Positions 26,206 to 44,647 of a DNA stretch of 64,000 nucleotides are shown in pieces (within the stretch, counting starts at the first letter, position 1; every line of letters starts with the position of its first letter). The position numbers and the translations under genes were made by a program. The notes under the pieces are model-generated. The model was not told the origin of the DNA. It did no database searches and saw only the letters and a list, made by a program, of their open reading frames with translations. The stretch comes from Gammaproteobacteria bacterium (lineage in GTDB: Bacteria; Pseudomonadota; Gammaproteobacteria; Steroidobacterales; Foliamicaceae), in NCBI GenBank assembly GCA_965116895.1, contig OZ220729.1, forward strand, positions 1,882,122-1,946,121. Reading direction: 5' to 3'.

Positions 26206-26207
26206 GG

Positions 26208-27056: not shown

Positions 27057-27060
27057 CGTC

Positions 27061-29247
27061 CTAGTGCTCGTCGTCCGGTCCGAGAATCTGCCGGCCCAGC
27101 GTGCGGCTGACGCCGCTGGTCCTTGTCATGCGTACGCGTTCGCCGGTCTTGCGCAGCGCCACGCGGGTGGCGGCCCAGGCCAGCGCCCCCGTGGATCCGT
27201 CGCTTTCCGCCGCGAGCAGCGAGGCCGGGTTCACCCCGCGCCCCTGCGCGTAACGACCATTGGCCTGGTGCCCCTGCCCCAGCGGCATGGCAATCACGTC
27301 GGGACGCACGCCCGGATACCGCAGCGCCGGCGCGGTCACCGTTCCGGCCTGCGAGCTCACTTCCACGACGTCGCCGTCCTTGAGGTCCAGCTCATCCGCG
27401 GTCGCCGGGTTCACTTCCACCCAGCTTCCGTAGGCAACGCTGGTCTGCGGGTCCGGCAGTTCCTGTATCCAGGGCAGCCTGGCGCCCTTGCCCTCGCGCA
27501 ATCCCGGCGTCTGAAAGGGGTGCAGCACGAAGGGATACTCGGATGCGTCGCCCGCAAACCGCGGCTCTGAAGGCGCCGCGGGAGCCGGGGCATCGGACGA
27601 GAACTCATCGGCCATTCCCTCCGCCAGGTCGGCAACCCAGACGCCCTGCTGCTGCACCTGCCGGAAACCGGCGTCGAAATCGTCCTCAATGCCGAGGTTC
27701 TTCCATGCAGTCGCCCACTCGGATCGGGTATAGGCTTCGGCGTCTTCATGGGGCAGCGCCTCGGCAAGAGCGCCGCCGGACCGTTGCGCAAGCTGCAGGA
27801 GGATATCGGTAACCGACAGCGTGTCATACAGGCGCCTTTGCACCGGCTGCTGCAAGGTGACCGACAGCTTCCCGTTTCCGGGAAGTGAAATGTCGTCGTC
27901 CCAGGTCTCGAAAAAAGTGTCCGTAGCCAGGATCCAGTCGGCCGCACTCGCCGTATCGCTGGGAAAGCTGTCCAGCGCCACAACCAGTTCGGCCCGGTCC
28001 AGGGCGCCGCGCAAGCCCAGGGAGTCCGGCAGATCGTGCAGCGGATCCACGCCCGCCACGATGACCAGCGACACTTCGCCGTTGGCCGCCTCGGCCACGA
28101 ATTTCTCTATCTCGCTCAGCGTGGAGAATCGGGGCGCGTGCGCCAGGTTGGGCCTGACGGTGGTCCCGGCGGCGCCCAGAATGCGGTTCAGCGCGGCCAC
28201 GCAGGTCAGCGCTTCGGTCGCGTTCACGCCCGCGCCCGCTGCTCCGCCTCCCAGGACCAGGGGTGTCCTGGCGGCGGCCAGCCGCTCGGCCAGCGCGCGC
28301 AATCGTTCGGCGGGCAGGTCCGCCAGCGCCGCGGCCTCGTCAAGGCTCAGGGCGCCGGACAGGCCTTCCCGGCCTGCCGGTCCCTCGTCCGCACCGCCCC
28401 GGCCATGCAACTCCGCGGCCAGCGCCAGCGCCAGCGCGCCTTCGGTGCCCGGCCGCGCGGGCAGCCACTCGTCCGCATTGGCGCCGGTCAGCGACATGCG
28501 CGGTTCGACCTGCACGAGGTATCCGCGATGGCCGTCGCCGCCCTGGCGAAACTCGCCGTAGGCCTTGGAATAGCCCACCGGCGAGCGCCATGCGCCGAGA
28601 AAGTCGGCGCCGAAGGAAACGACCAGGTCGGCTGATCCGATGTCGTAGTGAGGAAGGCCATTGAAGCCGTACATCGCCTTCGCGGCCGCCAGCTCGGTTG
28701 CCGGCGTGTCCAGCCCCAGACGCAGCACGTTCGCGCCCAGCGCTTCCCGGAACTTGTCCAGCGCCTCCTCGCCGGAACTGAGCAGGCCGCCGGTGAGGAT
28801 CCAGGTGCGGCTACCCATCCCCGCGGACTGCATCGCCCCCAGGCGCGGCGCGATGGCCTCAAGGGCCTCGTCCCAGGAAGATTCCACAAAGCCGCCTTCC
28901 CCGTCGGACCGCATGGGCGCACGCAGCCGGTCGGGGTTGTACAAGGCGTTGAGGCTGGCCTGGCCCAGCGCGCAGGTGCCGCCCCGGCTGACCGGATGAT
29001 TGGGATTGCCCTCGATCTTCTTGGCCCTGCCCTCGCGCACCCGAACCGAAATGCCGCAGCCGGCCGGGCACATGCGGCACAGGGTGTTGTACCAGGTGTC
29101 CATGCCCGGGGAGAAATCCTCGGGTGGAATATGCGTGGAGAGCAGCGTTTCCAGCGGACGCTGGTTCACTTCTCCGAGCAGAAGGCCGGTCCCGACGCCG
29201 ACTCCGCCGCCGGCCAGGTACTTGAATATGTCCCTGCGGTTCAGCAT
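27061..29247 (-). CDS. actB1: Alternative complex III subunit ActB1 (molybdopterin-oxidoreductase-like, Tat signal)
   Basis: Twin-arginine signal MLNRRDIFKYLAGGGVGVG. N-terminal Fe-S motif CRMCPAGCG. 728 aa with an MopB-like fold. Confidence 0.8.
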   Translation of the reverse strand: MLNRRDIFKYLAGGGVGVGTGLLLGEVNQRPLETLLSTHIPPEDFSPGMDTWYNTLCRMCPAGCGISVRVREGRAKKIEGNPNHPVSRGGTCALGQASLNALYNPDRLRAPMRSDGEGGFVESSWDEALEAIAPRLGAMQSAGMGSRTWILTGGLLSSGEEALDKFREALGANVLRLGLDTPATELAAAKAMYGFNGLPHYDIGSADLVVSFGADFLGAWRSPVGYSKAYGEFRQGGDGHRGYLVQVEPRMSLTGANADEWLPARPGTEGALALALAAELHGRGGADEGPAGREGLSGALSLDEAAALADLPAERLRALAERLAAARTPLVLGGGAAGAGVNATEALTCVAALNRILGAAGTTVRPNLAHAPRFSTLSEIEKFVAEAANGEVSLVIVAGVDPLHDLPDSLGLRGALDRAELVVALDSFPSDTASAADWILATDTFFETWDDDISLPGNGKLSVTLQQPVQRRLYDTLSVTDILLQLAQRSGGALAEALPHEDAEAYTRSEWATAWKNLGIEDDFDAGFRQVQQQGVWVADLAEGMADEFSSDAPAPAAPSEPRFAGDASEYPFVLHPFQTPGLREGKGARLPWIQELPDPQTSVAYGSWVEVNPATADELDLKDGDVVEVSSQAGTVTAPALRYPGVRPDVIAMPLGQGHQANGRYAQGRGVNPASLLAAESDGSTGALAWAATRVALRKTGERVRMTRTSGVSRTLGRQILGPDDEH

Positions 29248-29251
29248 GGCG

Positions 29252-29821
29252 TCAGTAGTGGCAGGTGAGGCAGTCGCGGCCGTTGGCCACGTCTTCCTCG
29301 GTGTGGCAATCGATGCACCAGGGCATGCGAAGGTTCTCGTTCAGATCGACGCGCCGCGTAACGCGAGCCATTTCCTCCACGGGTCCGTGGCAGGTCTGGC
29401 ATTCAACCCCGCCGCGGATATGCGGCTTGTGCCGGAAATGGACGAAATCCGGCGTATCGTGGACCTTCACCCAGGGGATGCCTTCTCCGCGCTCCCAGTA
29501 GTCGAAAAGCTTGACCACGTCGGGCTTGTCGCGAACCTCGGTGAGGCCCTTGTGGCAGCCCACGCAGGTCTCTACGCTGGGCACGCCAGCCGTCGCCGAG
29601 CGGCCGGCCCAGGAGTGGCAGTACTCGCAGGGAATCTCGTTTTCGCCGGCGTGAACCTCGTGGCTGAATTCGATCGGCTGGACCGGCGTGTAGTCGTTCA
29701 GCATGGCGCCGTGGGCCCAATGTCCGATGTAAGCACCGACAATCCCCAGCGCGGCAACAATCAAGCCCTTGATTACCGGCCGCGCGGCCTCGAAAACACC
29801 AATGGACACGAACAACTCCAA
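29252..29821 (-). CDS. actA: Alternative complex III subunit ActA (pentahaem cytochrome c)
   Basis: Five CxxCH motifs (CEYCH, CVGCH, CQTCH, CIDCH, CLTCH) after an N-terminal membrane anchor. Start is TTG 29821 or GTG 29809. Confidence 0.8.
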   Translation of the reverse strand: MELFVSIGVFEAARPVIKGLIVAALGIVGAYIGHWAHGAMLNDYTPVQPIEFSHEVHAGENEIPCEYCHSWAGRSATAGVPSVETCVGCHKGLTEVRDKPDVVKLFDYWERGEGIPWVKVHDTPDFVHFRHKPHIRGGVECQTCHGPVEEMARVTRRVDLNENLRMPWCIDCHTEEDVANGRDCLTCHY

Positions 29822-29922
29822 CCCTTGACGGCGCGCGATTATAGACGGTTACAGCCCGTCTGCCCACCTTTCCGACCGCAGCGCATATTCAAGCGCAATG
29901 CCTGCTGGACTAAACTGCGATC

Positions 29923-31455
29923 ATGCTGCAACACCGATTCATCGAAAGGGTCAGGAAACACCCGAACAAGACAGCCATCAGGGACAGGGCCACCCATCGG
30001 GATGTGACCTACTCACGGGCCCTGCTCGGCGCGCTTGTTCTGGCGCGGCGCTTCCGGAAAATGGAGCGAGGCCGCATCGGCATCATGTTGCCCACCTCGT
30101 CCGGTGGAGCCCTGGCTGTCGTGGGTGCGCTGATGGGCGGGTTGACACCCGTAATGATCAACTATTCGACCGGCGCCGCGAAAAACTGCGCGTACGCACA
30201 AGCCCAATGTGATTTCCGAACCATCGTCACGGCCCGCGCATTGGTGGAACGGGTCGGCTGCGAGGAACTGCCGGACATGGTGTTCATGGAGGACATCATG
30301 GCCGGACTGGGTCGCTACGAAAAGCTGCTGGCCTATCTCAAGTCCAGGCTGCCGCCGGGGTGGCTGAAGCGCATTACAGGCACTGGTGGCCTGGACAGTC
30401 CCGCCGTAATACTGTTTACCAGCGGCAGTGAGAAAGACCCCAAGGGTGTCCAGCTTACTCAGCGAAACATCCTGTCCAATATAGATTCCTTCTCCGACAT
30501 GATGGACATCCGCGGGATGGATCACATGCTGGCTGTGCTTCCCTACTTTCATGTGTTTGGCCTGACAATCCATCTCTGGACTCCCCTGTGTCTGGGAATG
30601 ACGGCCATTACCTACCCCAACCCTCTTGATTTCAAGGTCATCGCCAGACTCATCAGGGAAGAAAAACCCCAGCTGCTTGTCGGCACTCCACTGTTCCTGG
30701 AAGGATATGCAAGACAGTCCCGGCCGGGAGATTTCGCCAGTGTGAAACTGACCGTTGCGGGCGCCGACAAATGTCCCGATTCCCTCAGGCAACTCTACCG
30801 TGAGAAGCACAAGCTGGAGATTTTCGAAGGTTACGGCGCCACCGAGACTTCACCCGTTATCTCGGTGAACCCAAGGGACGGAAATCGCCCCGGCAGCATC
30901 GGCGTGCCGATACCGGGCACCCGGGTACGAATCGAGAACATCGACAACGGGGAGGACTGTGCGCCGGGCGAGATCGGCAGGATCATGGTGAAAGGCGAAG
31001 GGGTCATGTCCGGTTACCTGAATGACATGGCGGAGTCCCACCTGCGATTGAAGTCAGGCTGGTATGACACCGGCGATCTCGGGGTTCTCGATGAGGATGG
31101 CTATCTGTGGCACAAGGGTCGTCTCAAGCGATTCGTCAAGATAGGCGGCGAGATGGTCTCCCTGGTGAACGTGGAAGAGGCACTCAAGGAGGTAATCGGG
31201 GAAGACGTGGAGTGTTGCGCCGTGGAATTGCCGGATGCCAGGCGAGGTTCACGAATCATTGCAGTCACCAGCAGGCAGATCGATGAACGGGACGTGGCCA
31301 GGAGACTCACGGAACAGCTGCCCAACCTGGCGCTGCCGAAAAAGTACGTCGTGGTGAAGGAGTTCCCCGCCATGGGAAGCGGCAAGACTGATTTTCGCAC
31401 TCTCACCGACATTGTGCGCCGGCAGGAAGTCAACTCCCGGCGAGGACGCGCCTAG
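29923..31455 (+). CDS. AMP-dependent synthetase/ligase resembling the acyl-ACP synthetase domain of Aas
   Basis: AMP-binding motif ILFTSGSEKDPKGVQLTQRN, GYGATETSP, YDTGDLG. N-terminal region (LPTSSGGALAVVGALMGGLTPVMINYSTGA) recalls Aas-type enzymes. No acyltransferase domain. Confidence 0.75.
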   Translation: MLQHRFIERVRKHPNKTAIRDRATHRDVTYSRALLGALVLARRFRKMERGRIGIMLPTSSGGALAVVGALMGGLTPVMINYSTGAAKNCAYAQAQCDFRTIVTARALVERVGCEELPDMVFMEDIMAGLGRYEKLLAYLKSRLPPGWLKRITGTGGLDSPAVILFTSGSEKDPKGVQLTQRNILSNIDSFSDMMDIRGMDHMLAVLPYFHVFGLTIHLWTPLCLGMTAITYPNPLDFKVIARLIREEKPQLLVGTPLFLEGYARQSRPGDFASVKLTVAGADKCPDSLRQLYREKHKLEIFEGYGATETSPVISVNPRDGNRPGSIGVPIPGTRVRIENIDNGEDCAPGEIGRIMVKGEGVMSGYLNDMAESHLRLKSGWYDTGDLGVLDEDGYLWHKGRLKRFVKIGGEMVSLVNVEEALKEVIGEDVECCAVELPDARRGSRIIAVTSRQIDERDVARRLTEQLPNLALPKKYVVVKEFPAMGSGKTDFRTLTDIVRRQEVNSRRGRA

Positions 31456-32870
31456 AGAACGACCAGCGGGTCGTCCATCGTCGCCAGCGGCTCGAAACCG
31501 TCCTTCGTAACGACAATCAGATCTTCAAGGTGCGCGCCGCCCCAGCCGATCTCCAAAGACGGCATGTCGATGGTCAGCGTCATGTTCTCCCGGAACGTCA
31601 GGTCGTCCGAAACCATGAACGGCAAACCGTCCCGGTACGGCTGGTCGGTATGCTGCAGTCCCACGGAATGCGGCGAGGCGCCGAAGGTGGCTTTGGCCAG
31701 CGCCGCGTTCGCCTTGTTCATGGCCTCGCCCGCATGCGCCCGCAGTTCCGAGTACTTGAGGCCCGGACGAATCACGTCCAGCGCCGCCTCGTAGCCCTTT
31801 CGGATGATGCCCACCCGGTCGAGCACGTCCTTGCGGGGCTCGCCCAGGCACCAGGTGCGGCCGAAGTCGCCGTGGTAGTAGTTGATCTGGCACACCGCGT
31901 CGACCATCATCGGGCGTCCCGGCACGACCTCGCCGTCGGCGAACCCGCCGATCGTGCCCATCGCGATCCAGATCGCCTTCGCGCCGCGCTTGGCCGCTTC
32001 CTCAAGGAAGAGCTGGTCCGTGTCCGCCTTCGTCATCCCCGCTTCGACTTGTCGAAGCATCGCCATGCAGGCGTCCTGATTGGCCCGCGCCGCGGCGCGC
32101 ATGTGCCCGAGTTCCACCTCGGACTTGATCATCCGGATCTTGCGGAAGGTGTTGTCGCCGGGCACGCACCGGATCGTGTCCTGGCCCAGTGTCTCCAGAA
32201 TGTGCGCGATGCTCATGTCGTCCACCGCGACCCGGCCCTTCGCCAGCCCGGCTTCCTCCAGCGCGCGCACCAGCGCCCATTCCGGCGTGGCCGCCTTGCG
32301 GTTCTCGAAGCGGCGCTCCATTTCGACCCAGCCGCGTTCGATGTCCGTCAGGCTTTCTTCGCGAATCGGCCGGCTGAACCCGCCACGCGCTTCCGGTGGC
32401 CGGTTCCAGGTATCGGGGTCGCGGTACTGCTCCCACGCCACCGGCGCGCCGTACGGGATGATCTCGGGGTACTCCCGCTCGGCGTTGGCGATGAACCAGA
32501 GGTCGGTCGAGGCCACGACCAGGAACGAGGGCTTGCCGGGGTCGCGCGGCATGACCGCGAAGCTGGGAATGGCCCTGAGTTTCTGCACCTCGTACGAGAA
32601 GTAGTTGCCCAGGTAGAACACGTTGACCGGGTTGAGCGCGACGATCCCGTCGACGCCCTCCTGTTCCATCACCTCGTAGGCGCGCGGCCTGTTGACCAGG
32701 CTGCGCCCGTCGAAGTCCTCGCCCGGGACCGGTCCGGGAGCGATCAGCCCCCAGTTGGCGTGCGCCTGTTGCGCGCCCAGCATGCCGGCGCCCAGCGCAA
32801 ATGCCGCCCCGCCGGCAATCCCGGCAAAGAAGTCCCGGCGCTCGATGTGATAGGGATCGGGCTTCGTCAT
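31452..32870 (-). CDS. M24-family metallopeptidase/creatinase-like protein with Tat signal
   Basis: Real start is ATG at 32870 (MTKPDPYHIERRDFFAGIAGGAAFALGAGMLGAQQAHA); the upstream 168 codons of the track ORF are not credible. Creatinase_N-like N-domain plus pita-bread C-domain (VDAVCQINYYHGDFGRTW, PHSVGLQH, AHLEDLIVVT). ATGA overlap with the upstream gene. Confidence 0.75.
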   Translation of the reverse strand: MTKPDPYHIERRDFFAGIAGGAAFALGAGMLGAQQAHANWGLIAPGPVPGEDFDGRSLVNRPRAYEVMEQEGVDGIVALNPVNVFYLGNYFSYEVQKLRAIPSFAVMPRDPGKPSFLVVASTDLWFIANAEREYPEIIPYGAPVAWEQYRDPDTWNRPPEARGGFSRPIREESLTDIERGWVEMERRFENRKAATPEWALVRALEEAGLAKGRVAVDDMSIAHILETLGQDTIRCVPGDNTFRKIRMIKSEVELGHMRAAARANQDACMAMLRQVEAGMTKADTDQLFLEEAAKRGAKAIWIAMGTIGGFADGEVVPGRPMMVDAVCQINYYHGDFGRTWCLGEPRKDVLDRVGIIRKGYEAALDVIRPGLKYSELRAHAGEAMNKANAALAKATFGASPHSVGLQHTDQPYRDGLPFMVSDDLTFRENMTLTIDMPSLEIGWGGAHLEDLIVVTKDGFEPLATMDDPLVVL

Positions 32871-34195
32871 AGCGTGCCCTCCTTGAAAATGTCGTGAATT
32901 CCGTCGGCCAGGCGGTCCACCTGGTCCTCGGTGTTGTAGTGGTGGGTCGAGGCGCGCACCGTATTCAGGCCGTAGTCGGTCTCCCGCACCCAGACGCGGT
33001 TGCGCCGCCAGAGCGTATCGACCACCGCAATCCGGTCGAAGCCTTCCAGCGCGAAACCGGTCAGCCCGCAGCACAGTTCCGGGTTCTCCGAGGCGTACAG
33101 CGTCACTCCGGGAATCTCCCTGAGCCTTTCCCGCAGCCTTGCGGCCAGTGCCCGGACGCGTTCCTCGATGCGGCCGCGGCCGATGGCGTTCTGGAACTCT
33201 AGCGCCGCAAGCGTTGCCAGCAGCAACGGGCCGGCGCGCTGGCTCAGGCGGTCGTAGCGCTGCGCGCCGGTCTCCTCGTCGTCCCAGCCCATCGACGCCA
33301 CGGTCGGCCAGACCCTGTCCTGCGACTCGCGCCGCATATAGAGAAAGCCCGTCCCGACCGGCGCGCCCGCCCACTTGTAGGGGCTGGAGGCATAGAAGTC
33401 GACGCCCAGGTCCTGCATGTCCAGGTCGATCATCCCGATCGCGTGCGCGCCATCGACCAGCGTAAGGATGCCGCGGGGACGGGCCAGGCCCGCGAGCTGC
33501 CCCACCGGCAGCATGCAGCCGGTAGGAAACGTGACGTGACTGACGCTGATCACGCGGGTGCGGGGAGTGATGGCGTCCTCGAAGAGGCTCAGTAGTTCCG
33601 CCGGGTCCGAGACCGGAATCGGAAACGGCAGCTCCTTCACGACCACGCCGTGACGTTTCGCCTTGATTTTCCAGGGCTCCAGCCCGCCGGGATGCTCATG
33701 GAAGGTGCACAGCACCTCGTCGCCGGCCTTGAGGTCGAGACCATTGGCGATGAAACTCATTCCCTCGGTCGTATTCCGGGTCAATGCGACCTCGCCGGGG
33801 GCGGCGTTGACGAAGGCGGCCAGTTCCTGCCGCAATTCGTCCTCGGCCTCCACCTGGCGCGCGTTCTCGCGGCCGGGATCGGCGGCCAGCGACCGGTAGC
33901 CGTCCACCACGGCGTAAAACACGGGCTTTGGCATCGGACCAAGCGTGCCGCTGTTCATGTAGGCCAACTCGTCCGAGATCAGGAACTCGCGGCGCACTTT
34001 CGACCAGAAATCCTCTTCCGGCAGCGCCCGGGCCTCCTCCATCGAGGCGATCGACGCCCGGGCGTCGGCCCTGGACGCCCCGCCGGCCACGAACATGCCG
34101 GCCGACCCTGCCGCGACCGCGCCGAGAAACCGGCGGCGCGAAACACCGGCCGCGGTCCCCGGCTCCAGTACCGTTCCACGCAAGGGCTCCGGCAT
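32867..34195 (-). CDS. Class V aminotransferase-fold PLP enzyme (isopenicillin-N-epimerase/cysteine-desulfurase-like) with Tat signal
   Basis: ATG at 34195 preceded by GGGGAGG. Twin-arginine signal GVSRRRFLGAVAAGSAGMFVAGGASRADA. Fold-type I motifs (ALTRNTTEG, VDGAHAIG, ASSPYKW with the candidate PLP lysine). Confidence 0.75.
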   Translation of the reverse strand: MPEPLRGTVLEPGTAAGVSRRRFLGAVAAGSAGMFVAGGASRADARASIASMEEARALPEEDFWSKVRREFLISDELAYMNSGTLGPMPKPVFYAVVDGYRSLAADPGRENARQVEAEDELRQELAAFVNAAPGEVALTRNTTEGMSFIANGLDLKAGDEVLCTFHEHPGGLEPWKIKAKRHGVVVKELPFPIPVSDPAELLSLFEDAITPRTRVISVSHVTFPTGCMLPVGQLAGLARPRGILTLVDGAHAIGMIDLDMQDLGVDFYASSPYKWAGAPVGTGFLYMRRESQDRVWPTVASMGWDDEETGAQRYDRLSQRAGPLLLATLAALEFQNAIGRGRIEERVRALAARLRERLREIPGVTLYASENPELCCGLTGFALEGFDRIAVVDTLWRRNRVWVRETDYGLNTVRASTHHYNTEDQVDRLADGIHDIFKEGTL

Positions 34196-34300
34196 CGGCG
34201 CGCCTCCCCGAAATCGACGAAAGACCATAATAGACTACGCCGCTGATGCGGCCCCCGGAGGGACAGGCTGATACTTCCGCTGAAACCACACGCCCGAAAG

Positions 34301-35827
34301 TTGCGGCTTGCCCGAACCGCGTTTTGTTCGGCGGTCATTCTTGGAATCGCCACGATTTGCGAAGCGCCCCGGGCCTTCGCGGAGGAAACGCCGCTTCGCG
34401 TGGCGGTGACGCTCATGCCGGCCAGCTTCGGCGACCCTTTCCGGACCCTGGGCGTCCCGGGGGATTGGGTCTGGCGCCAGATCTTCGACCCGCTCACCGA
34501 AAGCGACGATGAAGGACGCATTGTTCCGCTGCTGGCCGAAAGCTTCGAGAATCTCGATCCCCACACCTGGCGTTTCGAGCTTCGCGAAGGCGTGCGCTAT
34601 GCCAACGGCCGGCCCTTCAACGCCTTCTCGGCAAAAGAAGTCTTCGACTGGCTGATCAGCGACGAGGGCCAGGCGACGGTCGTAGGCTGGGAGATACGCC
34701 GGGTCAGCAAGGTCGAGGCGCCCGATCCCCGCACGCTGATCTTCACCACCTGGGAACCGGACCCGGTCCTGCCCAACCGGCTGACTTCCGCGATGATGGT
34801 CGAGCCGCAGGCCTGGCGCGAACTGGGCCGGCAGGGTTTTTCGCGAACCCCTGTGGGCACGGGTTCGTACCTGCTCACGGACTGGCAGAACCGCAACGGA
34901 GCGGTGGTGCTCACGGCCAACCCGTACGCCTGGCGGCCGCCCGGAATTTCGCGGGCGGAGATCTATCCGCTGCGCGATCACGCCTCGCGTTTGCAGGCGG
35001 CCCTGTCCGGCCAGCTGGACATCATCATGTCCCTGCGCCCCGAGCAACTCGACATTTTTCACCGCCGCGGCTTTACGGTCCACGCCGATATCCTGCGGCA
35101 GATCCTCGCCTTCGCCTTCGACGTGACCGGGCATCCCGATTCGCCGATCGCGGACGTGCGCGTGCGCCAGGCGCTCAACTACGCCATTGACCGAAGGGCC
35201 ATCTCGGAAGACATCCTTCAGGGCTTTGCGCCGCCGGCCAGCCAGGGATCGGCGCCCAACGTGTTCGGCCACAATCCGCGGATCAAGCCCTATCCCCACG
35301 ATCCGGAGAAGGCCCGAGCGCTGCTCGCCGAGGCAGGCTACCCGCAGGGTTTCTCCACCGAGGTGCAGGTCGTGACCGGCACCTATCCCAACGACCTGGA
35401 AATCTTCGCCAAGCTGCAGCAGGACCTGGCGGCGGTGGGCGTTGACATGGCGTTCCGCAGGGTGCTGTTCTCCGACTGGATCCGCCAGTTCTTCCAGGGC
35501 GCGTGGCGCACCGAACTCTTCACTCTCGCCTGGAACACCGCGCCGCACAACGACGCATTGCGGCCCATGGAGCAGTATTCCTGCCTCAAGACCCGCCCGT
35601 TCTTCTGCGACGAAGGGCTGCGCGGAAAACTCGTGGCTGCCGGCCGGGAAATGGACACACGGCGAAGGGAGGCCCTGCTCCAGGAGCTGGCCCTCGACTA
35701 CCGGCAGCGCGCCGTCAGCCTGCTGCTGCTGGAGTACGGCCACATGTGGGTGGTGGCGCCCGGCTTGAGCGGGTTCCGCGTGCGCACCCGGGCTCCGCAG
35801 CTCTACCGCGTAGAGCGGGTCGAATGA
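34301..35827 (+). CDS. ABC transporter substrate-binding protein, family 5 (peptide/nickel/opine type)
   Basis: TTG start. Signal peptide (AFCSAVILGIATICEAPRAFA). SBP_bac_5-like length and motifs (RFELREGVRYANGRPF, GTGSYLLTDW). Confidence 0.8.
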   Translation: MRLARTAFCSAVILGIATICEAPRAFAEETPLRVAVTLMPASFGDPFRTLGVPGDWVWRQIFDPLTESDDEGRIVPLLAESFENLDPHTWRFELREGVRYANGRPFNAFSAKEVFDWLISDEGQATVVGWEIRRVSKVEAPDPRTLIFTTWEPDPVLPNRLTSAMMVEPQAWRELGRQGFSRTPVGTGSYLLTDWQNRNGAVVLTANPYAWRPPGISRAEIYPLRDHASRLQAALSGQLDIIMSLRPEQLDIFHRRGFTVHADILRQILAFAFDVTGHPDSPIADVRVRQALNYAIDRRAISEDILQGFAPPASQGSAPNVFGHNPRIKPYPHDPEKARALLAEAGYPQGFSTEVQVVTGTYPNDLEIFAKLQQDLAAVGVDMAFRRVLFSDWIRQFFQGAWRTELFTLAWNTAPHNDALRPMEQYSCLKTRPFFCDEGLRGKLVAAGREMDTRRREALLQELALDYRQRAVSLLLLEYGHMWVVAPGLSGFRVRTRAPQLYRVERVE

Positions 35828-36750
35828 TTCTTCCCGGTCTGGCGCAACGCGCCGTACGGCTGCTGATCCTGCTGCTGGGGGTGAACGCGCTGCTTTTCGT
35901 TGCGCTTGGCCTGGCCGGCGATCCGGCGCTGATGCTGGCCGGAGAGGACCCGACGCCGGAACTGCTTGAACGGATACGCGCCGAATACGGCCTCGACCTC
36001 CCGGCCTGGCAACGGTACCTCGTCCAGCTTGGGCGCATGGCACAACTCGACTTCGGCGTCTCGATCTATACCGGGCAACCGGCCCTGGTCATGGCGCTGG
36101 AACAACTGCCGGGCACGCTGCTGATGGCGGTACTCAGCATGGCCCTGACCCTGGTCACGGCCATCCCCGCCGGCGTCTGGATCGGCCAGCGTCCCGAGGC
36201 CGCTTCGCGCCGGTTCGGCGCCGCGCTGACTGCCGTGGCCCAGGGCATCCCCGGTTTCGTCATGGCGCTGGTGCTGATCCAGGTCTTCGTGGTGCGGCTC
36301 GGCTGGCTGCCCTCGCTCGGTTACTCGCAGCCGGCCGCCTGGATACTTCCGAGCATTTCGCTGGGTTTCTTCCTCGCGCCGAAACTGTGCCGCGTGGTCA
36401 GCGCCGGCGTTGCCGAGGCGATGCAGGAGGACTACATACGCACCGCCCGCGCCAACGGCGCGTCGATGCGGTTCATCCTCTGGAGAGAAGCGCTGCCTGC
36501 CGCCCTGCCGGCGGCGGTCGCGCTGGTGGGCACCCAATTCGCGTTCCTGGTTTCCGGCGTCGTGCTGATCGAGACCCTGTTCCTGTGGCCGGGCATCGGT
36601 CTGCTGCTGCTGTACTCGGCCCAGAACCTGGACTTTCCGGTGCTTCAGGCGATCTGCTTTGTCGTGGCGATCCTTGTGTTCCTGGTGAACAGCCTGGCGG
36701 ACGCCCTGTTGCGCCTGATGGACCCGAGGCTGAGGCCGGCAGCGCAATGA
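35824..36750 (+). CDS. ABC transporter permease (DppB/OppB-like)
   Basis: ATG at 35824 overlapping the SBP stop (ATGA). N-terminus MILPGLAQRAVRLLILLLGV and EAA-loop region (DYIRTARANGAS). Confidence 0.85.
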   Translation: MILPGLAQRAVRLLILLLGVNALLFVALGLAGDPALMLAGEDPTPELLERIRAEYGLDLPAWQRYLVQLGRMAQLDFGVSIYTGQPALVMALEQLPGTLLMAVLSMALTLVTAIPAGVWIGQRPEAASRRFGAALTAVAQGIPGFVMALVLIQVFVVRLGWLPSLGYSQPAAWILPSISLGFFLAPKLCRVVSAGVAEAMQEDYIRTARANGASMRFILWREALPAALPAAVALVGTQFAFLVSGVVLIETLFLWPGIGLLLLYSAQNLDFPVLQAICFVVAILVFLVNSLADALLRLMDPRLRPAAQ

Positions 36751-37592
36751 AAACGGAACAGGCTTTGCGCCGGATGCTGGCGCCGCTCAAGGCGTCGCCC
36801 CAACTGGCGCTGGGCGCGGCGGCGCTGCTGGGCTGGGTGCTGCTGCTGGCGCTGGGCGGGCTGCTGCAGACGCACGACCCGCAATTGGGCGACCTGGCGG
36901 AACGCTTTGCACCGGCGGGTGCCGCGGGCCACCTGCTGGGGACCGACAACCTGGGGCGGGACCTCTGGTCGCGGGTACTTTCGGGTCTTCCATGGTCGGT
37001 GGGCGTCGCAACCGTTTCCTGCATCCTGGCGCTGCTGCTGGGCGGCACGCTGGGCATGTGCGCCGCGCAGTTCCCGGGCCACCCTCGCACCGCCATCAAT
37101 CAACTGGTCGACGCCACGCTGTCCTTTCCGGGGCTGGTCGCGGCGATCATCATCGTGGCGATAGCGGGCCGGGGATTCTGGCCGCTCAGCATCACCTTGG
37201 GACTGCTGAGCTGGCCGGTTTTCGCCCGCGTAGTCTACGCCGAGAGCCTGCGCCTGCTGGCCGAAGACTACGTGACGGCGGCCCGGATCATGGCGGTGAG
37301 CACGCCGCGCATTCTGCTGGGCCACCTGCTGCCGGGGCTGCGCCCGGTGCTTGCGGTGGTATTCACGTTTCATTTCGCCGACATGCTGGTGGCGGAAAGC
37401 GCCCTCTCCTTCCTGGGTCTGGGAGCGCCGCTGGGCGTTCCCACCTGGGGCTCGCTGTTGCAGGAATCGCGCGACTTCCTGATCGTCGCGCCCTGGCTGA
37501 TGATCGTGCCCGCCACCGCCATCGCCCTGCTGGTCGTTTCCATCCACCTGCTGGGAGACGGCCTGAGCGCACTGGATCGGGCTCGCAGATGA
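36747..37592 (+). CDS. ABC transporter permease (DppC/OppC-like)
   Basis: ATG at 36747 overlapping the previous stop (ATGA). HLLGTDNLGRDLWSRVL motif, EDYVTAARIMAVS EAA loop. Confidence 0.85.
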   Translation: MKTEQALRRMLAPLKASPQLALGAAALLGWVLLLALGGLLQTHDPQLGDLAERFAPAGAAGHLLGTDNLGRDLWSRVLSGLPWSVGVATVSCILALLLGGTLGMCAAQFPGHPRTAINQLVDATLSFPGLVAAIIIVAIAGRGFWPLSITLGLLSWPVFARVVYAESLRLLAEDYVTAARIMAVSTPRILLGHLLPGLRPVLAVVFTFHFADMLVAESALSFLGLGAPLGVPTWGSLLQESRDFLIVAPWLMIVPATAIALLVVSIHLLGDGLSALDRARR

Positions 37593-39160
37593 ACGCTTCC
37601 GCCTCCCTTCTGCGAATACGCGAGCTGTGCGTGGATTTTCCCCGCGCCGGCAGGGTCCTGCACGGCGTATCGCTGGATGCGGCCGAGGGAGAAGTCGTGG
37701 GCCTGGTCGGTGAGTCGGGCGCCGGCAAGACGCTGGCGGCGCTGGCCATTCTGGGCCTCGTGCCCACGCCGGGACGCATCGCCGGCGGCAAGGTGTTCGT
37801 CAGGGACAGGGAGCTGACCCAACTCGATGAAGAAGCCCTGCGGCCATTGCGCGGCCGGCTCGCCGGATTCGTCTTTCAGGATCCCCTGAAATCACTCAAC
37901 CCGGTCCGCCCGATCGGTTCCGCGCTGGTCGAAAGCGCCATGCGCCATACCGGGCTGACGCGCCAAGAGGCGCGGATGAGAGCGATCGAAGCCCTGCGCT
38001 CGGTCGAACTGCCCAAACCGGAATCGGCCCTGCGCGCCTACCCGCACCAGTTCTCGGGCGGCCAGCGTCAGCGCATCATGATCGCCCTGGCGCTGATAAA
38101 CCAGCCGCCGCTGCTCATCGCCGACGAGCCCACGACGGCGCTGGACGCCGCGGTGCAGTCACGGATCCTTGATCTGCTCAAACGCCGCGCAAAGCGCCAC
38201 ACGCTGCTGATGATCACCCACGACCTGGCGCTGGCCGCCCGTTTCTGCGACCGCCTCTACGTCATGCACGGCGGGCGGGTGGTGGAGCATGGGCCGGCCC
38301 GCGAACTGTTCTCCAGGCCCCGCCACGAATACACCCGCTCGCTGCTGGACGCGATGCCGGGAAAACGGGCGGCCGCTCGCGGGCGCGTCGGCCGCCCGAA
38401 ATCGCGGGAGGCCCTGGTCGCCCTGCGCGGCCTTACGGTCCGCTACCGGGGGGCGCGGCAACCGGCCGTAGAAAACGTCGATTTCTCGATTGGGGCCAAC
38501 GAAACCGTGTGCCTGGTGGGAGAGTCCGGATCGGGCAAGACCACGATTGCGCGCGCGCTGGCGGGCGTAATCAGGGTAGAACCCGAACAACTCCGATTCC
38601 CGGCGCTGAACGACGAATTGCCGGGCGCGACGGTTCGCGCGCGCCATCTGCAGATGGTTTTCCAGGACCCCTATTCCAGTCTCAACCCGCGGTGGCCCGT
38701 GGAACGCATCGTCGCCGAACCGATCCGCACCCACCGCCTGTGCGCCCGTGCGGAGCAAAAGGCCCGAGTGGCCGCTCTCCTGGGCCGCGTCGGCCTGGAT
38801 CCGGAGCAGATGGACCGGCGCCCGGCGGCTTTCTCCGGGGGCCAGCGCCAGCGAATCGCCCTGGCGCGCGCGCTGGCGATGAATCCGCGCCTGCTGCTGG
38901 CCGATGAAGCGCTCTCCGCGCTGGACATTCGCACCCAGGCCCGGATCCTGGCGCTGCTTCGGGACATCCGCGAAGAACGCAGACTGGCGCTGCTGCTCAT
39001 AACGCACGACCTGGCGCTGGCCGCGGAAATCGGCGACCGCGTGATCGTGCTCCGCCGCGGAAGGATCGTCGAACAGGGGCCCGCGTCCAGGGTCATGAAC
39101 GCGCCCCGGCACGAATACACCCGCGAACTGCTCGCCGCCCAGGCGCGCTGGCGCCCGTAG
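37589..39160 (+). CDS. ABC transporter ATP-binding protein, fused double ATPase (DppD/DppF-like)
   Basis: ATG at 37589 (ATGA overlap). Two Walker A motifs (GESGAGKT, GESGSGKTT) and two signature motifs (FSGGQRQRI twice). Confidence 0.9.
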   Translation: MNASASLLRIRELCVDFPRAGRVLHGVSLDAAEGEVVGLVGESGAGKTLAALAILGLVPTPGRIAGGKVFVRDRELTQLDEEALRPLRGRLAGFVFQDPLKSLNPVRPIGSALVESAMRHTGLTRQEARMRAIEALRSVELPKPESALRAYPHQFSGGQRQRIMIALALINQPPLLIADEPTTALDAAVQSRILDLLKRRAKRHTLLMITHDLALAARFCDRLYVMHGGRVVEHGPARELFSRPRHEYTRSLLDAMPGKRAAARGRVGRPKSREALVALRGLTVRYRGARQPAVENVDFSIGANETVCLVGESGSGKTTIARALAGVIRVEPEQLRFPALNDELPGATVRARHLQMVFQDPYSSLNPRWPVERIVAEPIRTHRLCARAEQKARVAALLGRVGLDPEQMDRRPAAFSGGQRQRIALARALAMNPRLLLADEALSALDIRTQARILALLRDIREERRLALLLITHDLALAAEIGDRVIVLRRGRIVEQGPASRVMNAPRHEYTRELLAAQARWRP

Positions 39161-39204
39161 AGTCCTTTCGCTCCCGGGACGGCCGGCATGTACACTCCGC
39201 GCCT

Positions 39205-40698
39205 GTGAAACGTCGAGAACTGCTTAAAGGCGCGGGCGCCGGCCTGACCCTGGCGATCCCGGCCGTGCGGGCCGGCACACTGCTGGAATCGCAGTGGGAT
39301 TTCATCGTCGTGGGCGCGGGCACCGCGGGACTGCCCGCCGCCATCCACGCCTCCAGGCGCGGCGCGAAGGTCCTGATGCTGGAAGCGGCCGACGCGCTGG
39401 GCGGCACGCTGACCATGGCCTCGGGTCAGGTCAGCGCGGCCGGGACACGGCTGCAGGAAGCCAGGGGCATCGCCGATTCGCCGGACCGACACTTCGAGGA
39501 CATCATGGAGATCACCTTTGGCGAGGCGGACCCGAAGATCGTTCGGCGCACCGTGGACCTCGCGCCGGACACGCTGAACTGGCTGCTGGACAAGGGGCTG
39601 GTTCCGCTACCCGGTCACCCGGTGACAGGAGCGGCGCCGGGGCGCGCAGGTTACAGCGTTCCGCGTTATTTCTGGGCCGAGGAGGCCGGCAAGGCGATCC
39701 TCAAGGTGGTGCTCGAGGAGCTTGAGCGCGAAATGCCGCAAGGCAATATCGCGATCCGCCTCGACACCCGGGTGACCGGGCTGCTGACGTCCGATTCGGG
39801 CGCGGTGGAAGGCGTTCGCGCGGAGAGCGGCGACGAGGAATGGACTTTCCGCGGGCGCCACATCCTGCTCACCAGCGGCGGCTACGCCATGAACCCGGAC
39901 ATGTTCGAGCTGCTGACCGGCCATCCGGCCTACGCCGCCGGTTCCTGGCCGCATTCCATGGGCGACGGCCTGGACCTGGCCGTTTCCGTAGGCGGCTGGC
40001 TGCGCGGCCAGCACCTTCATCGAGCCGGCACCGGCTCCATCCTTACCAGGGCGGCATTTCCCGCCAAGGTCTACGCGCGTTTCGCGACGGTCCCTCAGGA
40101 ACGTCTGCCCTGGGAAATCTGGGTCAACGATTCGGGGCAGCGTTTCATTCGCGAGGACGAACCGCTGGTGCGCCCACGGGCTCGCGCCGTGCTCGCACTG
40201 CCGCGCCTTCGCTACGTCATCGTTTTCGACGAGAACATCTTCAACAGCGCACCGCCCGGGTTGCCACAGTTCAGCCGGGAGGAGTTTCTCGCCCACTGCG
40301 AGAACCATCCCATGTTCGCCCGCGCCGACAGCCTGGCCGAGCTGGCGGCGGCAGCGGACGTGGACGCAGCGGGACTGACGCAGACCGTCCGCGACTACAA
40401 CGATGCGGTGGCCGGCGGCGAAGACCCGCTCGGGCGGCGGCATCTGCCCGCGCCCATCGCCGAGCCGCCCTTCTACGCCATCACGCACCTGGGCAGTTCG
40501 GCCACGTCGTCGGCCGGCGTGGTGGTGAACGACGCGCACCAGGTCGTGCGCGGGAACCAGGAGCCGGTGCCGGGGCTCTACGCCGCCGGCGAAGTCCTCG
40601 GGTCCGGCACCACGCTGGGCTCCACGTTCGCGCCCGGAATGATGCTCACTCCGGCACTCTCCATCGGCCGCTGGCTAGGCATGACCCTGCCCATCTGA
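39205..40698 (+). CDS. FAD-dependent oxidoreductase (FAD_binding_2, fumarate-reductase/KstD-like) with Tat signal
   Basis: GTG start. Twin-arginine signal VKRRELLKGAGAGLTLAIPAVRA. Dinucleotide fold DFIVVGAGTAGLPAAIHASRRGAKVLMLEA. C-terminal LYAAGEVLGSG motif. Confidence 0.8.
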   Translation: MKRRELLKGAGAGLTLAIPAVRAGTLLESQWDFIVVGAGTAGLPAAIHASRRGAKVLMLEAADALGGTLTMASGQVSAAGTRLQEARGIADSPDRHFEDIMEITFGEADPKIVRRTVDLAPDTLNWLLDKGLVPLPGHPVTGAAPGRAGYSVPRYFWAEEAGKAILKVVLEELEREMPQGNIAIRLDTRVTGLLTSDSGAVEGVRAESGDEEWTFRGRHILLTSGGYAMNPDMFELLTGHPAYAAGSWPHSMGDGLDLAVSVGGWLRGQHLHRAGTGSILTRAAFPAKVYARFATVPQERLPWEIWVNDSGQRFIREDEPLVRPRARAVLALPRLRYVIVFDENIFNSAPPGLPQFSREEFLAHCENHPMFARADSLAELAAAADVDAAGLTQTVRDYNDAVAGGEDPLGRRHLPAPIAEPPFYAITHLGSSATSSAGVVVNDAHQVVRGNQEPVPGLYAAGEVLGSGTTLGSTFAPGMMLTPALSIGRWLGMTLPI

Positions 40699-40734
40699 CC
40701 CCATGGGGCGGGCTTAAGCGCCCTTCTCCCGGGA

Positions 40735-42924
40735 TCAGAAGATGTAGGTTGCGGTAGCTCCGATCTGCCGCGGGTCCGCCAGCGGATACTGGAAGGCGCG
40801 AACGAATCCCGAGGTGCGGGCGCTGTCGCCGCGCGGCAGGATGTTCTTGAAGTCCACGAAGCGGATCACCGTGGAAGGCGTGCGGTCGTCCGTCAGGTTG
40901 CGCACGAACAGCCCCAGCTGCCATTGCCCCACGTCCAGCCCAAGCTTCACATTGATCAGGTTCTGATCGCCGCTGTGGGCATGGTTGAAGATCTGCGCGT
41001 ACTTGCGGCTGGCGTATGCGTAGTCGGCGCGGATGTAGGCGGTATTGGCGCCCACCGGCCACTCGTAGCGGGCGAAGGCGTTGGCCATGTGCTTCGACGC
41101 GTTGGGCGTCTGGTTGCCGGCCACCGACGGATTGCCGCCGGTAAATACGGCCTGTTCCCGGAACTCGTCAAACTCCACGAATGTGGCGTCGTTCAGCGCG
41201 TAGCCGAAGCCGGCGGTGAACTGCTCATTGAAGATATGCGCCACTTCCAGCTCCAGACCCTTGCCCTCGGTTTCACCGGCATTGGTTACGTACGACACCG
41301 GGCGGCCGTCGCTGAGCAGGCCGGTGGTGGTGAGCTGCTGCTTGGTCCAGTCGATGAAATACACGGCCACGTTCAAGGTCGTGCGGCCATCGTTCAGCGT
41401 GTTCTTGGTGCCCACCTCGACGTTGAAGGATTCTTCCTCCTCCGCAAACCGCAGCGAAGGATCCAGTAACGGGTTGGCGTTGATGAAGCCGGGCTTGTTA
41501 CCCACGGCCACCGTCCCGTAAATCATCCGGCCGTCGGCGTATTTCCAGTCCAGCGTGGCGCGCGGCGACCAGGTCTTGAAGGTGTTCTCGATCAGAGGCA
41601 GCGTGGGGCGCGCGGGCGGATTGTCGTTGCCGATCTTGTCCGATGCATAACGCAGTTCCAGCGTGCCGGTAACGGTATCGGAAAAGTCGCGCGCGACCGA
41701 TCCGAACACGGCCCAGTTGTCGGTGCGGGCCTCGCCCTGATCGACGGTGCGGCCGTTGAGGCGGTCCTCGCGAAAGTCCCGGCGGCTCTGATACAGGTAC
41801 ACCCCGCCCAGCAGCCGGGTGGCGGACACCAGGTCGGTGCTGATCAGCAACTCGGTGGACCACTCGCGGCGGTCGCTCACCGCGATGCGATTGAAGGTTC
41901 CGCCCAGTGCGGTCGAGTTGGACGTGATGTCCACGTCATAACCGTAGGTGGAATCGGCATTGAAATAGCCGGTGTTGGACCGCACGGTGAAGCCGCCCAG
42001 GTCCCATTCAAGCTGCGCCGATGCGCGCCAGGCCGTCTTGTCGAGTCCGATATCGTCGCCGAACAGGTCCAGGTTCTGCTCGGTGCTGTCCAGTTCCGCA
42101 ACCTCGCCGCAGTAGTACTGCCGCGCGATTTCCAGGAAACAGTTGTTGTAGCTGCGGTCCTGCAGGGTTACCGCGGCCGCGCCGTCGTCGTCACTGCCGT
42201 AGCCCAGATTGAATCGGGCCGTGAAGCTGTCCGAGGGCCGCAGCTCCACGGACAGGTTCAGGTTGATCGACTCCTCGTCGCCCACAAGCTGGTTGTCCAG
42301 CGTGTTTCGATAGAAGCCGCCGTAGGTGTAGTAGCGCACGTGGGCCATGTAGAAGGCGGTGTCCTGCGCCAGGGGTCCGCGCGAAAGAAGGCTGATTTCG
42401 CCCTCCTCGTGCTCCGCCACGCGCAGCGAAAACTTGTTTTCGGGCTCGTTGGTGCCCGTCTTGGTGATCAGGTTGATGGCGCCGGCGAAGGTGGCCCGGC
42501 CGAACAGCGCCGCCTGGGGGCCCTTGATCACTTCCACCCGTTCGACGATATCGAACGGAAACGACAGGATCGAATCGTTGTAGAGCACGCCGTCCACGAA
42601 GATGGAAGCGTTGGCGCCGCCGAGGATCTGCGACTGGCCGCGGATGACCGGCCGGCTGCCTCCTCCCTGCACGCCGTAGCGGTTCAGTTTCTCGAACGAG
42701 AAGCCCGGCGTGAACTGGCTGATGTCCATCACGTCGGACAGGCCCCGCTCGCTGATCTCGGCCGCCGTGAAGGCGCTGATCGTGAGCGGCACGTCCTGGA
42801 TCCGCTCTTCCTGCTTGCGCGCGGTAACCACGACTTCCTCGATCTCGCCGGCTTCCTGTTGCGCCAGGGCCGGCGGCGCGGTCAGGGCAAACGCGCAGGC
42901 AAGAATGGTGATTCGAATCCTCAT
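40735..42924 (-). CDS. TonB-dependent receptor (TBDR-3)
   Basis: ATG at 42924 gives MRIRITILACAFALTAPPALAQQE. Plug EIEEVVVTARKQEERIQDVPLTISAF. Ends ..GATATYIF. Confidence 0.85.
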   Translation of the reverse strand: MRIRITILACAFALTAPPALAQQEAGEIEEVVVTARKQEERIQDVPLTISAFTAAEISERGLSDVMDISQFTPGFSFEKLNRYGVQGGGSRPVIRGQSQILGGANASIFVDGVLYNDSILSFPFDIVERVEVIKGPQAALFGRATFAGAINLITKTGTNEPENKFSLRVAEHEEGEISLLSRGPLAQDTAFYMAHVRYYTYGGFYRNTLDNQLVGDEESINLNLSVELRPSDSFTARFNLGYGSDDDGAAAVTLQDRSYNNCFLEIARQYYCGEVAELDSTEQNLDLFGDDIGLDKTAWRASAQLEWDLGGFTVRSNTGYFNADSTYGYDVDITSNSTALGGTFNRIAVSDRREWSTELLISTDLVSATRLLGGVYLYQSRRDFREDRLNGRTVDQGEARTDNWAVFGSVARDFSDTVTGTLELRYASDKIGNDNPPARPTLPLIENTFKTWSPRATLDWKYADGRMIYGTVAVGNKPGFINANPLLDPSLRFAEEEESFNVEVGTKNTLNDGRTTLNVAVYFIDWTKQQLTTTGLLSDGRPVSYVTNAGETEGKGLELEVAHIFNEQFTAGFGYALNDATFVEFDEFREQAVFTGGNPSVAGNQTPNASKHMANAFARYEWPVGANTAYIRADYAYASRKYAQIFNHAHSGDQNLINVKLGLDVGQWQLGLFVRNLTDDRTPSTVIRFVDFKNILPRGDSARTSGFVRAFQYPLADPRQIGATATYIF

Positions 42925-43000
42925 GAGCAATACTCCGGATGCTGGAAAACGACGCAATATACCCAAAAAGGCGCCGGCGAGCCACTATGGCGTCGAGGCG

Positions 43001-43294: not shown

Positions 43295-43304
43295 GGGCCC
43301 CGCC

Positions 43305-44504: not shown

Positions 44505-44647
44505 TACGGCAGTCCTCCCTTGCCCGGAATCATACTACGCGGCCGTTTTGTGCGGCCACGTCGTTGAACTTCAGCGATGGCGCGCGGAATTCCGTTTAGA
44601 CTTAGCGCCCCGCCGGTCGGAGAGACCGGGAAACTGAGGGGTACTTG

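Follow-up and report, generated by a model that had tools for sequence, protein, structure and literature searches.

A modular locus of predicted Tat-exported cofactor enzymes and a peptide-type ABC importer in a gammaproteobacterium of the Candidatus Foliamicus clade

Genes of the locus and their predicted functions

A divergent gene locus in a 64-kb stretch of gammaproteobacterial DNA (contig OZ220729.1; the whole stretch is called the window here) encodes an M24-family metallohydrolase, a pyridoxal 5'-phosphate (PLP) enzyme and a flavin adenine dinucleotide (FAD)-binding flavoprotein, all three with predicted twin-arginine translocation (Tat) signals, together with a peptide-type ATP-binding cassette (ABC) importer. 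An earlier interpretation made from the letters alone (the sequence-only reading) had delimited eight genes at 31452-40698, with ATGA overlaps and a 105-nt divergent gap. Gene calls and direct reading of the sequence bear out this layout: all eight genes lie at those coordinates, the set contains four ATGA overlaps, and the gap between the PLP gene and the gene for the solute-binding protein measures exactly 105 nt (34196-34300). The right-hand boundary was drawn too early; the functional neighbourhood runs past 40698 to approximately 46614 and takes in an adjacent TonB-dependent receptor, a methyltransferase-like gene with a small companion gene, and two genes for proteins of the vicinal oxygen chelate (VOC) fold, all of which had been overlooked (Table 1). 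The PLP gene is taken to start at ATG 34195, with GGAGG 8 nt upstream, where its homologues also begin; an alternative ATG at 34228 sits within the conserved upstream motif.

Table 1. Features of the locus, followed by those of an alternative complex III/Qrc-like operon to its left
Feature	Position	Strand	Details
Tat-signal M24 metallohydrolase	31452-32870	-	472 aa; PF00557 1.3e-25
Tat-signal class-V PLP enzyme, PvdN-like	32867-34195	-	442 aa; PF00266 2.6e-46
Conserved element upstream of the PLP gene, in the 105-nt gap	34225-34252	-	palindrome and -10-like box
Family-5 (cluster C) solute-binding protein, SBP_bac_5	34301-35827	+	508 aa; TTG start; PF00496 2.1e-59
ABC permease, BPD_transp_1	35824-36750	+	308 aa; PF00528 and PF19300
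Second ABC permease, BPD_transp_1	36747-37592	+	281 aa; PF00528
Fused double ABC ATPase	37589-39160	+	523 aa; two PF00005 stretches and oligo_HPY
Tat-signal FAD_binding_2 flavoprotein	39205-40698	+	497 aa; GTG start; PF00890 1.2e-46
TonB-dependent receptor	40735-42924	-	Plug and barrel domains; convergent with the FAD gene
Small protein, no known family	43001-43294	-	97 aa; TTG start at 43294; no signal peptide
Methyltransferase-like protein	43305-44504	-	399 aa; Methyltransf_25 core, residues 200-297; no signal peptide
VOC1, two-domain VOC/glyoxalase-fold protein	44645-45658	+	PF00903 and PF13669; divergent from the methyltransferase-like gene
VOC2, second VOC-fold protein	45655-46614	+	weak Pfam Glyoxalase matches
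Multihaem cytochrome c	29252-29821	-	alternative complex III/Qrc-like operon
Tat-signal molybdopterin-like subunit	27061-29247	-	best NCBIfam match QrcB
4Fe-4S protein	26208-27056	-	alternative complex III/Qrc-like operon
NrfD-like membrane subunit	24850-26262	-	alternative complex III/Qrc-like operon
439-aa protein	22528-23847	-	no Pfam match; alternative complex III/Qrc-like operon

All proteins of the window were screened with a TatFind-like rule, which asks for an RR motif, 13 or more uncharged residues and an AxA-like site. Only four passed, namely the M24, PLP and FAD proteins and the molybdopterin enzyme encoded at 27061-29247, which is of a type classically exported by Tat; none of the spurious open reading frames (ORFs) in the window did so. 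Judged against the Tat pattern of an S/T-R-R-x-F-L-K-type motif in the first ~35 residues, an uncharged h-region and an AxA-type cleavage site, the three enzymes also qualify: the motifs ERRDFF (M24), SRRRFL (PLP) and KRRELL (FAD) are accompanied by 30, 19 and 13 uncharged residues, respectively. The M24 signal reads ERRDFFAG...AHA/NWG (slash, predicted cleavage site), with A-N-W-G at this site invariant across the family, the PLP signal reads SRRRFLG and the FAD signal KRRELLKG. Conservation in homologues points the same way: R3 and R4 of the FAD protein are invariant in 16 homologues (identity down to 57%), R31 and R32 of the PLP enzyme (numbered from the 34228 start) in 14 (down to 55%), and R11 and R12 of the M24 enzyme are kept in at least 90% of 18 (down to 51%). 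Since every family keeps the RR pair without change or almost so, a periplasmic location is well supported, and the M24 enzyme, the PLP enzyme and the flavoprotein are all very probably Tat substrates of the periplasm; such family-conserved signals predict that each enzyme folds and takes up its cofactor (metal, PLP or FAD) in the cytoplasm before it acts in the periplasm. A PLP protein, PvdN, has been shown to use the Tat pathway, and bound PLP is required for its export (PMC6206403). The sequence-only reading had proposed both the three RR signals and the arrangement of periplasmic Tat enzymes around a peptide-type importer; the former are confirmed by the rule and by conservation in homologues, and the latter is supported by RR conservation and by the architecture of the importer. 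No tatABC genes were seen among the genes of the window.

In the M24 enzyme, D324, D335, H401, D435 and E449 are invariant in 18 homologues and, in a family profile alignment, coincide with the metal ligands D209, D220, H284, E313 and E327 of Pyrococcus furiosus prolidase; the full two-metal site is thus retained. The AlphaFold2 model (pLDDT 72.5, pTM 0.76) found its top fold matches among Xaa-Pro peptidases, followed by the ectoine hydrolase DoeA, creatinase and DddP, with TM-scores of 0.7-0.8 (normalised by target length). The M24B Xaa-Pro dipeptidases and aminopeptidase P have the two-domain pita-bread fold and the five metal ligands in common with the window enzyme, which, unlike them, carries a Tat signal, a longer N-terminal half and an Asp (D435) in place of one Glu ligand. 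Identity to the solved enzymes is only 15-21%, and bit scores stay far below the equivalog cut-offs for PepQ (41.7 against 630) and PepP (20.7 against 465). The active site of creatinase is metal-free; all five metal-ligand positions are occupied here and PF01321 (Creatinase_N) has no match in the protein, which rules out a creatinase. From sequence and model, the protein is predicted to be a metal-dependent amidohydrolase. Near M24 homologues in L078 (Altererythrobacter sp. GH1-8, 892-9410), L049 (6749-7444) and L067 (1975-2610; L numbers designate the fetched loci described below), the neighbours are hydantoinase A/B, histidinol-dehydrogenase-like, phosphoenolpyruvate mutase/isocitrate lyase-like or, by eye, isochorismatase-like ORFs. 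Neighbours of these kinds hint at cyclic-amide or ureide-type substrates.

The flavoprotein has flavocytochrome c3 (Fcc3; 1.3e-40), TcuA and urocanate reductase (6e-29) as its top matches, and the Fcc3 substrate-site residues H365, R402, H504 and R545 were used for comparison. Its R300, invariant in the family, is the equivalent of the catalytic R402, whereas A433 and F475 align with H504 and R545, so that two of the four fumarate-site residues are missing. By this alignment, the protein keeps the catalytic Arg of the fumarate and urocanate reductases without their distal carboxylate-binding His and Arg. No haem or flavin mononucleotide (FMN) domain was found in it. A function as fumarate reductase was rejected, given the lost equivalents of H504 and R545 and the lack of a haem domain. 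The FAD_binding_2 fold and the catalytic Arg are shared by the window protein and the soluble periplasmic or extracellular flavin reductases Fcc3, UrdA and Cgr2; unlike these, the window protein is associated with no haem, FMN or adjacent cytochrome partner. Cgr2 of Eggerthella lenta is an FAD_binding_2 reductase predicted to be Tat-secreted (PMC5953540). At one fetched locus (L085), the FAD homologue adjoins a 430-aa c-type cytochrome protein with Cytochrom_C and Cytochrome_CBB3 domains.

Examples of periplasmic PLP chemistry have so far come essentially from pyoverdine tailoring, for which Pseudomonas exports PvdN and PtaA to the periplasm via Tat. The PLP enzyme of the locus has PvdN as its top match both in the PDB (5i90, 2.8e-37, aligned over residues 53-430) and in NCBIfam (NF051467), where the score of 159 bits does not reach the cut-off of 650; identity to PvdN is only approximately 30%. 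By these scores, it resembles PvdN yet falls outside the PvdN family. The class-V PLP fold, the Schiff-base lysine, the absence of a persulfide Cys and Tat export (here predicted) are common to both, and K285 (34228-start numbering) is invariant in 14 homologues. The catalytic-Cys loop of SufS aligns with VWVRETDYGLN, which contains no Cys (HMMER alignment); a cysteine desulfurase (SufS, CsdA or IscS) was rejected on this ground and on a score of 150 bits against a cut-off of 475. PvdN sits in the pyoverdine cluster, whereas the window gene is paired with an M24 hydrolase gene, and neither pvd genes nor a pvdMNO cluster occur in the window. Unlike pyoverdine-cluster PvdN, its homologues are widespread as stand-alone genes, found at 58-70% identity in unrelated contexts.

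The importer possesses the complete PepT architecture, with an SBP_bac_5 protein, two BPD_transp_1 permeases and ATPases with oligo_HPY. The binding protein carries a Sec-type signal ending in AFA/EE, and its top matches, GsiB/YliB, NikA, AgaA and AccA, all lie far below the equivalog cut-offs (GsiB, 111 against 594 bits; NikA, 103.5 against 393; CntA, 65.5 against 800). The top NCBIfam matches, likewise below cut-off, are Opp2B, NikB and GsiC for the first permease, Opp2C, Opp1C, NikC, GsiD and CntC for the second, and YejF and GsiA, in which the two ATPases are also fused, for the double ATPase. Systems for glutathione (GsiABCD), nickel (NikABCDE), opine metallophores (Cnt/Opp) and opines or agrocinopines have the same architecture and are the top-scoring relatives, and sequence similarity places the importer in the Gsi/Nik/opine branch of PepT ABC importers. 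A specific identity as nickel, glutathione or opine importer was discarded, as no substrate-specific model reaches its cut-off.

Among the right-hand genes, the TonB-dependent receptor has a Sec-type signal from ATG 42924 and a siderophore-receptor subfamily as its top NCBIfam model. No NCBIfam model reaches its cut-off for the methyltransferase-like protein, and the 97-aa small protein has no Pfam or NCBIfam match. The latter is homologous to small ORFs beside the methyltransferase-like gene in L067, L070, L110, L111 and other loci, and the small gene always accompanies the methyltransferase-like gene. The methyltransferase-like family counts 235 representatives at E<=1e-30 among 1.8 billion; a Rosetta-stone search found no gene fusions among the best 150 representatives, which are 128-484 aa long and have no extra domain. 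The receptor is one of five in the window, at 7109-9643 (+), 17925-20438 (+), 40735-42924 (-), 48164-51376 (-) and 55744-58392 (-), an unusually dense set of which one member carries a CarboxypepD_reg domain.

In the divergent region, the palindrome GCCGCATCAGCGGC (34239-34252) is followed by GTAGTCTATTATGG (34225-34238), which resembles a -10 box. Among ten aligned loci of the Candidatus (Ca.) Foliamicus clade, the -10-like GTAGTCTATTATG is invariant (10/10) and the palindrome GCCGC-N4-GCGGC is present in eight. The palindrome and the -10-like motif are candidates for an operator and a promoter. A scan for consensus sigma-70 promoters found none, a terminator scan gave two terminator-like sites against approximately 10 expected by chance, and the best Fur-box match (11/19) was reached by 43 of 457 control windows, so that it is not above background. 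The locus contains no regulator gene, as the sequence-only reading had stated, and an Rfam scan of 29000-47500 at E<=1 gave no match.

Distribution and recurrent partners

Through the M24 family, 74 genome loci were fetched and all window proteins were mapped onto them. Outside the Foliamicus clade, M24 homologues (48-72% identity) provided 57 loci and FAD homologues fetched from metagenomes provided 78; neighbours were counted there within 8 kb of the anchor gene, and lineages were defined by collapsing anchors at 80% identity, single linkage at 65% having merged nearly everything and being uninformative. The nearest relatives of the window are metagenome-assembled genomes, some labelled Ca. 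Foliamicus, and many of the isolate names are typical of sponge metagenomes. A literature search found no paper that mentions 'Foliamicus', and a search joining Tat, M24 and TonB returned only a paper on PvdM in which 'M24' is the name of a mutation.

Only in the Ca. Foliamicus clade is the full gene set seen: 10 of 15 loci have it, at 79-95% protein identity, plus one metagenome locus (L089). The M24 gene encodes the sole enzyme found in every locus variant. In L015 the PLP gene is missing, and the conserved upstream motif stands, as the variant TAATCTATTATGA (about 9890-9905), directly before the M24 gene. L012 has the ABC genes and lacks the FAD and receptor genes, a 38-aa FAD remnant after the ATPase gene (3484-3597) marking a deletion scar. 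In L010, L011 and L054, the importer, FAD and receptor genes are all absent and the order is VOC2 and VOC1 on one strand, then methyltransferase-like, small, PLP and M24 genes on the other, with a small-PLP gap of approximately 30 nt in L054; in L010 (8401-8514) and L011 (8561-8665), deletion scars take the form of a partial second copy of the small gene directly ahead of PLP. This order implies that the block of approximately 8.8 kb from the binding-protein gene to the FAD and receptor genes represents an insertion or a deletion inside the backbone. VOC2 adjoins VOC1 in L010, L011, L054 and L090.

The sequence-only reading had proposed a co-conserved eight-gene set and, as its check, conservation of that set across genomes. 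This expectation failed beyond the one clade, since a PLP gene lies near none of the 57 M24 or 78 FAD anchors outside it and a complete ABC system was never seen there beside M24 or FAD; the two divergent units are not co-conserved, and a single-pathway reading fails accordingly. What does recur is the methyltransferase-like/small gene pair, which is a partner of both the FAD family (17/78 loci) and the M24 family (6/57) (Table 2). Where a FAD anchor has a methyltransferase-like neighbour, that gene mostly lies directly upstream in the same orientation, at a distance of 12-33 nt. The rarity of the methyltransferase-like family means that its adjacency to FAD and M24 is not by chance. VOC relatives near M24 (19/57 loci) represent 4 of 23 lineages. 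Given the high density of receptors in these genomes, TonB-receptor counts were largely discounted.

Table 2. Neighbours counted around FAD and M24 anchor genes outside the Foliamicus clade
Anchor	Sample	Methyltransferase-like	Small	TonB receptor	Family-5 binding protein	VOC	M24	FAD	PLP
FAD	78 loci	17	10	11	6	1	1		0
FAD	47 lineages	11	7	6	4	1	1		0
M24	57 loci	6	4	13	5	19		3	0
M24	23 lineages	5	4	9	4	4		2	0

Individual loci show how these genes combine. In L118, receptor (63% identity) and FAD (59%) genes are adjacent, with the methyltransferase-like gene (40%) alongside on the opposite strand. L067, from the cultured Aliiglaciecola sp. 3_MG-2023, contains at 6378-12425 a Tat amine-oxidase flavoprotein, a small cytochrome c, the run methyltransferase-like, small and M24, and a Tat DUF1838 protein. 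In L110 the order is small, old yellow enzyme (OYE)-like, short-chain dehydrogenase/reductase (SDR), major facilitator superfamily (MFS), methyltransferase-like and FAD genes, and in L088 (Steroidobacteraceae) TctCBA is followed by FAD and by an M24 gene of another subfamily. On the best reading of these data, the functional link between M24 and FAD is indirect only, through their common methyltransferase-like/small partner, and the PLP gene and the importer were added in this clade alone.

Interpretation of the locus

We lean, with guarded confidence, towards the view that the locus is a modular, periplasm-facing nutrient-scavenging system of a sponge-symbiotic gammaproteobacterium of the Ca. 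Foliamicus clade, built from separable units. Unit A, the backbone, would comprise the methyltransferase-like, small, optional PLP and M24 genes, which form one tight co-directional run in some relatives; unit B, the TonB-dependent receptor and the Tat-exported Fcc3-like flavoprotein; and unit C, the Gsi/Nik/opine-type ABC importer. In such a system, a small organic substrate with an amide bond would cross the outer membrane through the receptor, M24 would hydrolyse the amide (peptide-like) bond, and the flavoprotein would oxidise (dehydrogenate) or reduce a C-C bond beside a carbonyl, while the PLP enzyme, where present, would modify the exposed alpha-amino-acid moiety. The products would enter the cell via the ABC system, or in other lineages via MFS or tripartite tricarboxylate transporters, and the cytoplasmic methyltransferase-like/small pair and the VOC enzymes would finish their processing. 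Because PvdN acts on gamma-linked Glu and the binding protein has its best match in GsiB, the substrate could, by analogy, be a gamma-glutamyl peptide.

Several observations weigh against this modular view. A direct M24-FAD neighbourhood outside the clade is rare (3/57 and 1/78 loci), the locus contains no gene for an electron partner of the flavoprotein, and one M24 family member (L067) apparently has no signal peptide. With five receptors in 64 kb, receptor adjacency is weak evidence in this genome and on its own is near chance. Furthermore, gene calls at the fetched loci come from a crude ORF picker, and metagenome contigs are short, so that absences in the fetched loci are under-determined.

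It is unlikely, though the surroundings give the idea some substance, that the Tat enzymes, the importer and the receptor are unrelated neighbours that serve different substrates in a scavenging-rich region prone to insertion and deletion. The window contains five TonB receptors, two MFS_2 transporters, POT and BCCT transporters, Peptidase_M2, TauD and an MttB set; genes have been gained and lost in modular fashion across the locus, and an AMP-ligase lies beside M24 only in some relatives. Such independence is difficult to reconcile with the ATGA overlap of the PLP and M24 genes, with the recurrent methyltransferase-like/small pair that ties the M24 and FAD families together across distant lineages, and with the receptor-FAD-methyltransferase adjacency kept in L118 at 40-63% identity.

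We also regard it as improbable that the eight genes constitute one obligate periplasmic line, in which a peptide-like compound is hydrolysed, PLP-modified and oxidised and the product is imported by the ABC system. The retention of the full arrangement in 10/15 clade loci, the tight coupling by ATGA overlaps and a common 105-nt divergent region with an invariant motif, and the predicted Tat targeting of all three enzymes would fit such a line. However, PLP, FAD with receptor, and importer with FAD and receptor have each been lost in some clade genomes while M24 stays; outside the clade PLP is never near M24 or FAD, its homologues at 58-70% identity stand alone in unrelated contexts, and no full ABC system accompanies M24 or FAD. 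The periplasmic processing line of the sequence-only reading therefore stands in part: Tat enzymes do flank a PepT importer, but one conserved eight-gene pathway is contradicted by the separate loss of the modules.

Metallophore handling, in which the TonB receptor and a Nik/Cnt-like ABC system would import a metal chelator of nickel, iron or opine type, and periplasmic enzymes would modify, recycle or degrade it in the manner of pyoverdine maturation, is very improbable: the PvdN matches of the PLP enzyme in family and structure, the best scores of permeases and binding protein against nickel/Opp2, Nik and Cnt models, the siderophore-receptor model of the receptor, and the siderophore-like substrates proposed for periplasmic proteins that resemble dipeptidases and are linked to TonB receptors and Tat-FAD oxidoreductases (PMC9305348) all point to it, but every model score is far below its family cut-off, the window showed no biosynthesis genes of nonribosomal peptide synthetase (NRPS), NRPS-independent siderophore (NIS) or CntLM type, the Fur-box matches do not exceed background, and the partner genes elsewhere (VOC, OYE-like, SDR, alpha/beta-hydrolase and MFS) look catabolic.

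The favoured modular scavenging system has precedents for each of its elements, in PvdN and PtaA, in Cgr2 and in reported but uncharacterised genomic links of periplasmic peptidase-fold proteins to Tat flavoproteins, TonB receptors and MFS transporters (PMC9305348); the particular families and their combination have not been described. The neighbourhoods of that report follow the same theme as the window locus (periplasmic peptidase-fold protein, Tat flavoprotein and TonB receptor, with or without MFS), and the taxa overlap (Steroidobacter, sphingomonads and Caulobacter). The protein families differ: those of PMC9305348 are M19 proteins with a dead metal site and DAO-type oxidases, whereas here M24 has an intact site and the flavoprotein is of Fcc3 type, and the methyltransferase-like/small pair is not described there.

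As a tentative extension, Tat-exported M24 hydrolases, Tat-exported haem-less Fcc3-like flavoproteins and the cytoplasmic methyltransferase-like/small pair, often accompanied by orphan family-5 binding proteins, VOC-fold proteins and TonB receptors, might possibly be the signature of a catabolic system that is widespread in aquatic and symbiotic Proteobacteria and has not been described. If so, the system would serve an abundant class of amide-containing dissolved organic compounds, with part of the chemistry done in the periplasm by pre-loaded cofactor enzymes, and its most elaborate form would be the locus of Foliamicus, extended by a PLP enzyme of PvdN type and by an ABC importer of its own. 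The uncharacterised families of Tat-exported M24 enzymes and domain-less Fcc3-type flavoproteins number hundreds of proteins from marine and freshwater bacteria and from bacteria associated with sponges. Identifying their common substrate would add to the picture of how organic matter is processed ahead of import by sponge symbionts and by heterotrophs rich in TonB receptors, and would give a function to the rare methyltransferase-like/small pair; the cultured strains Aliiglaciecola sp. 3_MG-2023 and Altererythrobacter sp. GH1-8, which carry parts of the network, offer tractable models.

Other genes of the window

Immediately to the left, an AMP-dependent ligase gene related to acyl-ACP synthetase (Aas-type; 29923-31455, +) is convergent with the M24 gene, and the stop codons overlap. 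It is found beside M24 in some loci of the Foliamicus clade (L003, L005 and L008) and is missing in others; it is a variable insertion and lies outside the locus proper. Further left, the operon at 22528-29821 (-) resembles alternative complex III or Qrc (Table 1). Directly after VOC2, on the right (46616-48048, +), come a PAPS_reduct-family gene (CysD-like) and an ORF that is APS-kinase-like by eye only.

Two stretches, 10470-11360 (+) and approximately 50501-51289, show 27-29% identity to a Tat-signal alpha/beta-hydrolase that adjoins M24 in L026 and FAD in L141; the second overlaps the large receptor ORF at 48164-51376, either inside it or on the opposite strand. A POT-family peptide transporter gene followed by Peptidase_M2 (angiotensin-converting-enzyme-like) at 12185-15492 (+) forms another peptide-scavenging pair. 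At 58443-60958 (-), an MttB-family methyltransferase gene adjoins that of a pterin-binding protein, and a BCCT transporter (52113-54206) and TauD (51226-52116) are encoded close by; together they resemble a set for the uptake and demethylation of quaternary amines, such as is typical of sponge symbionts.

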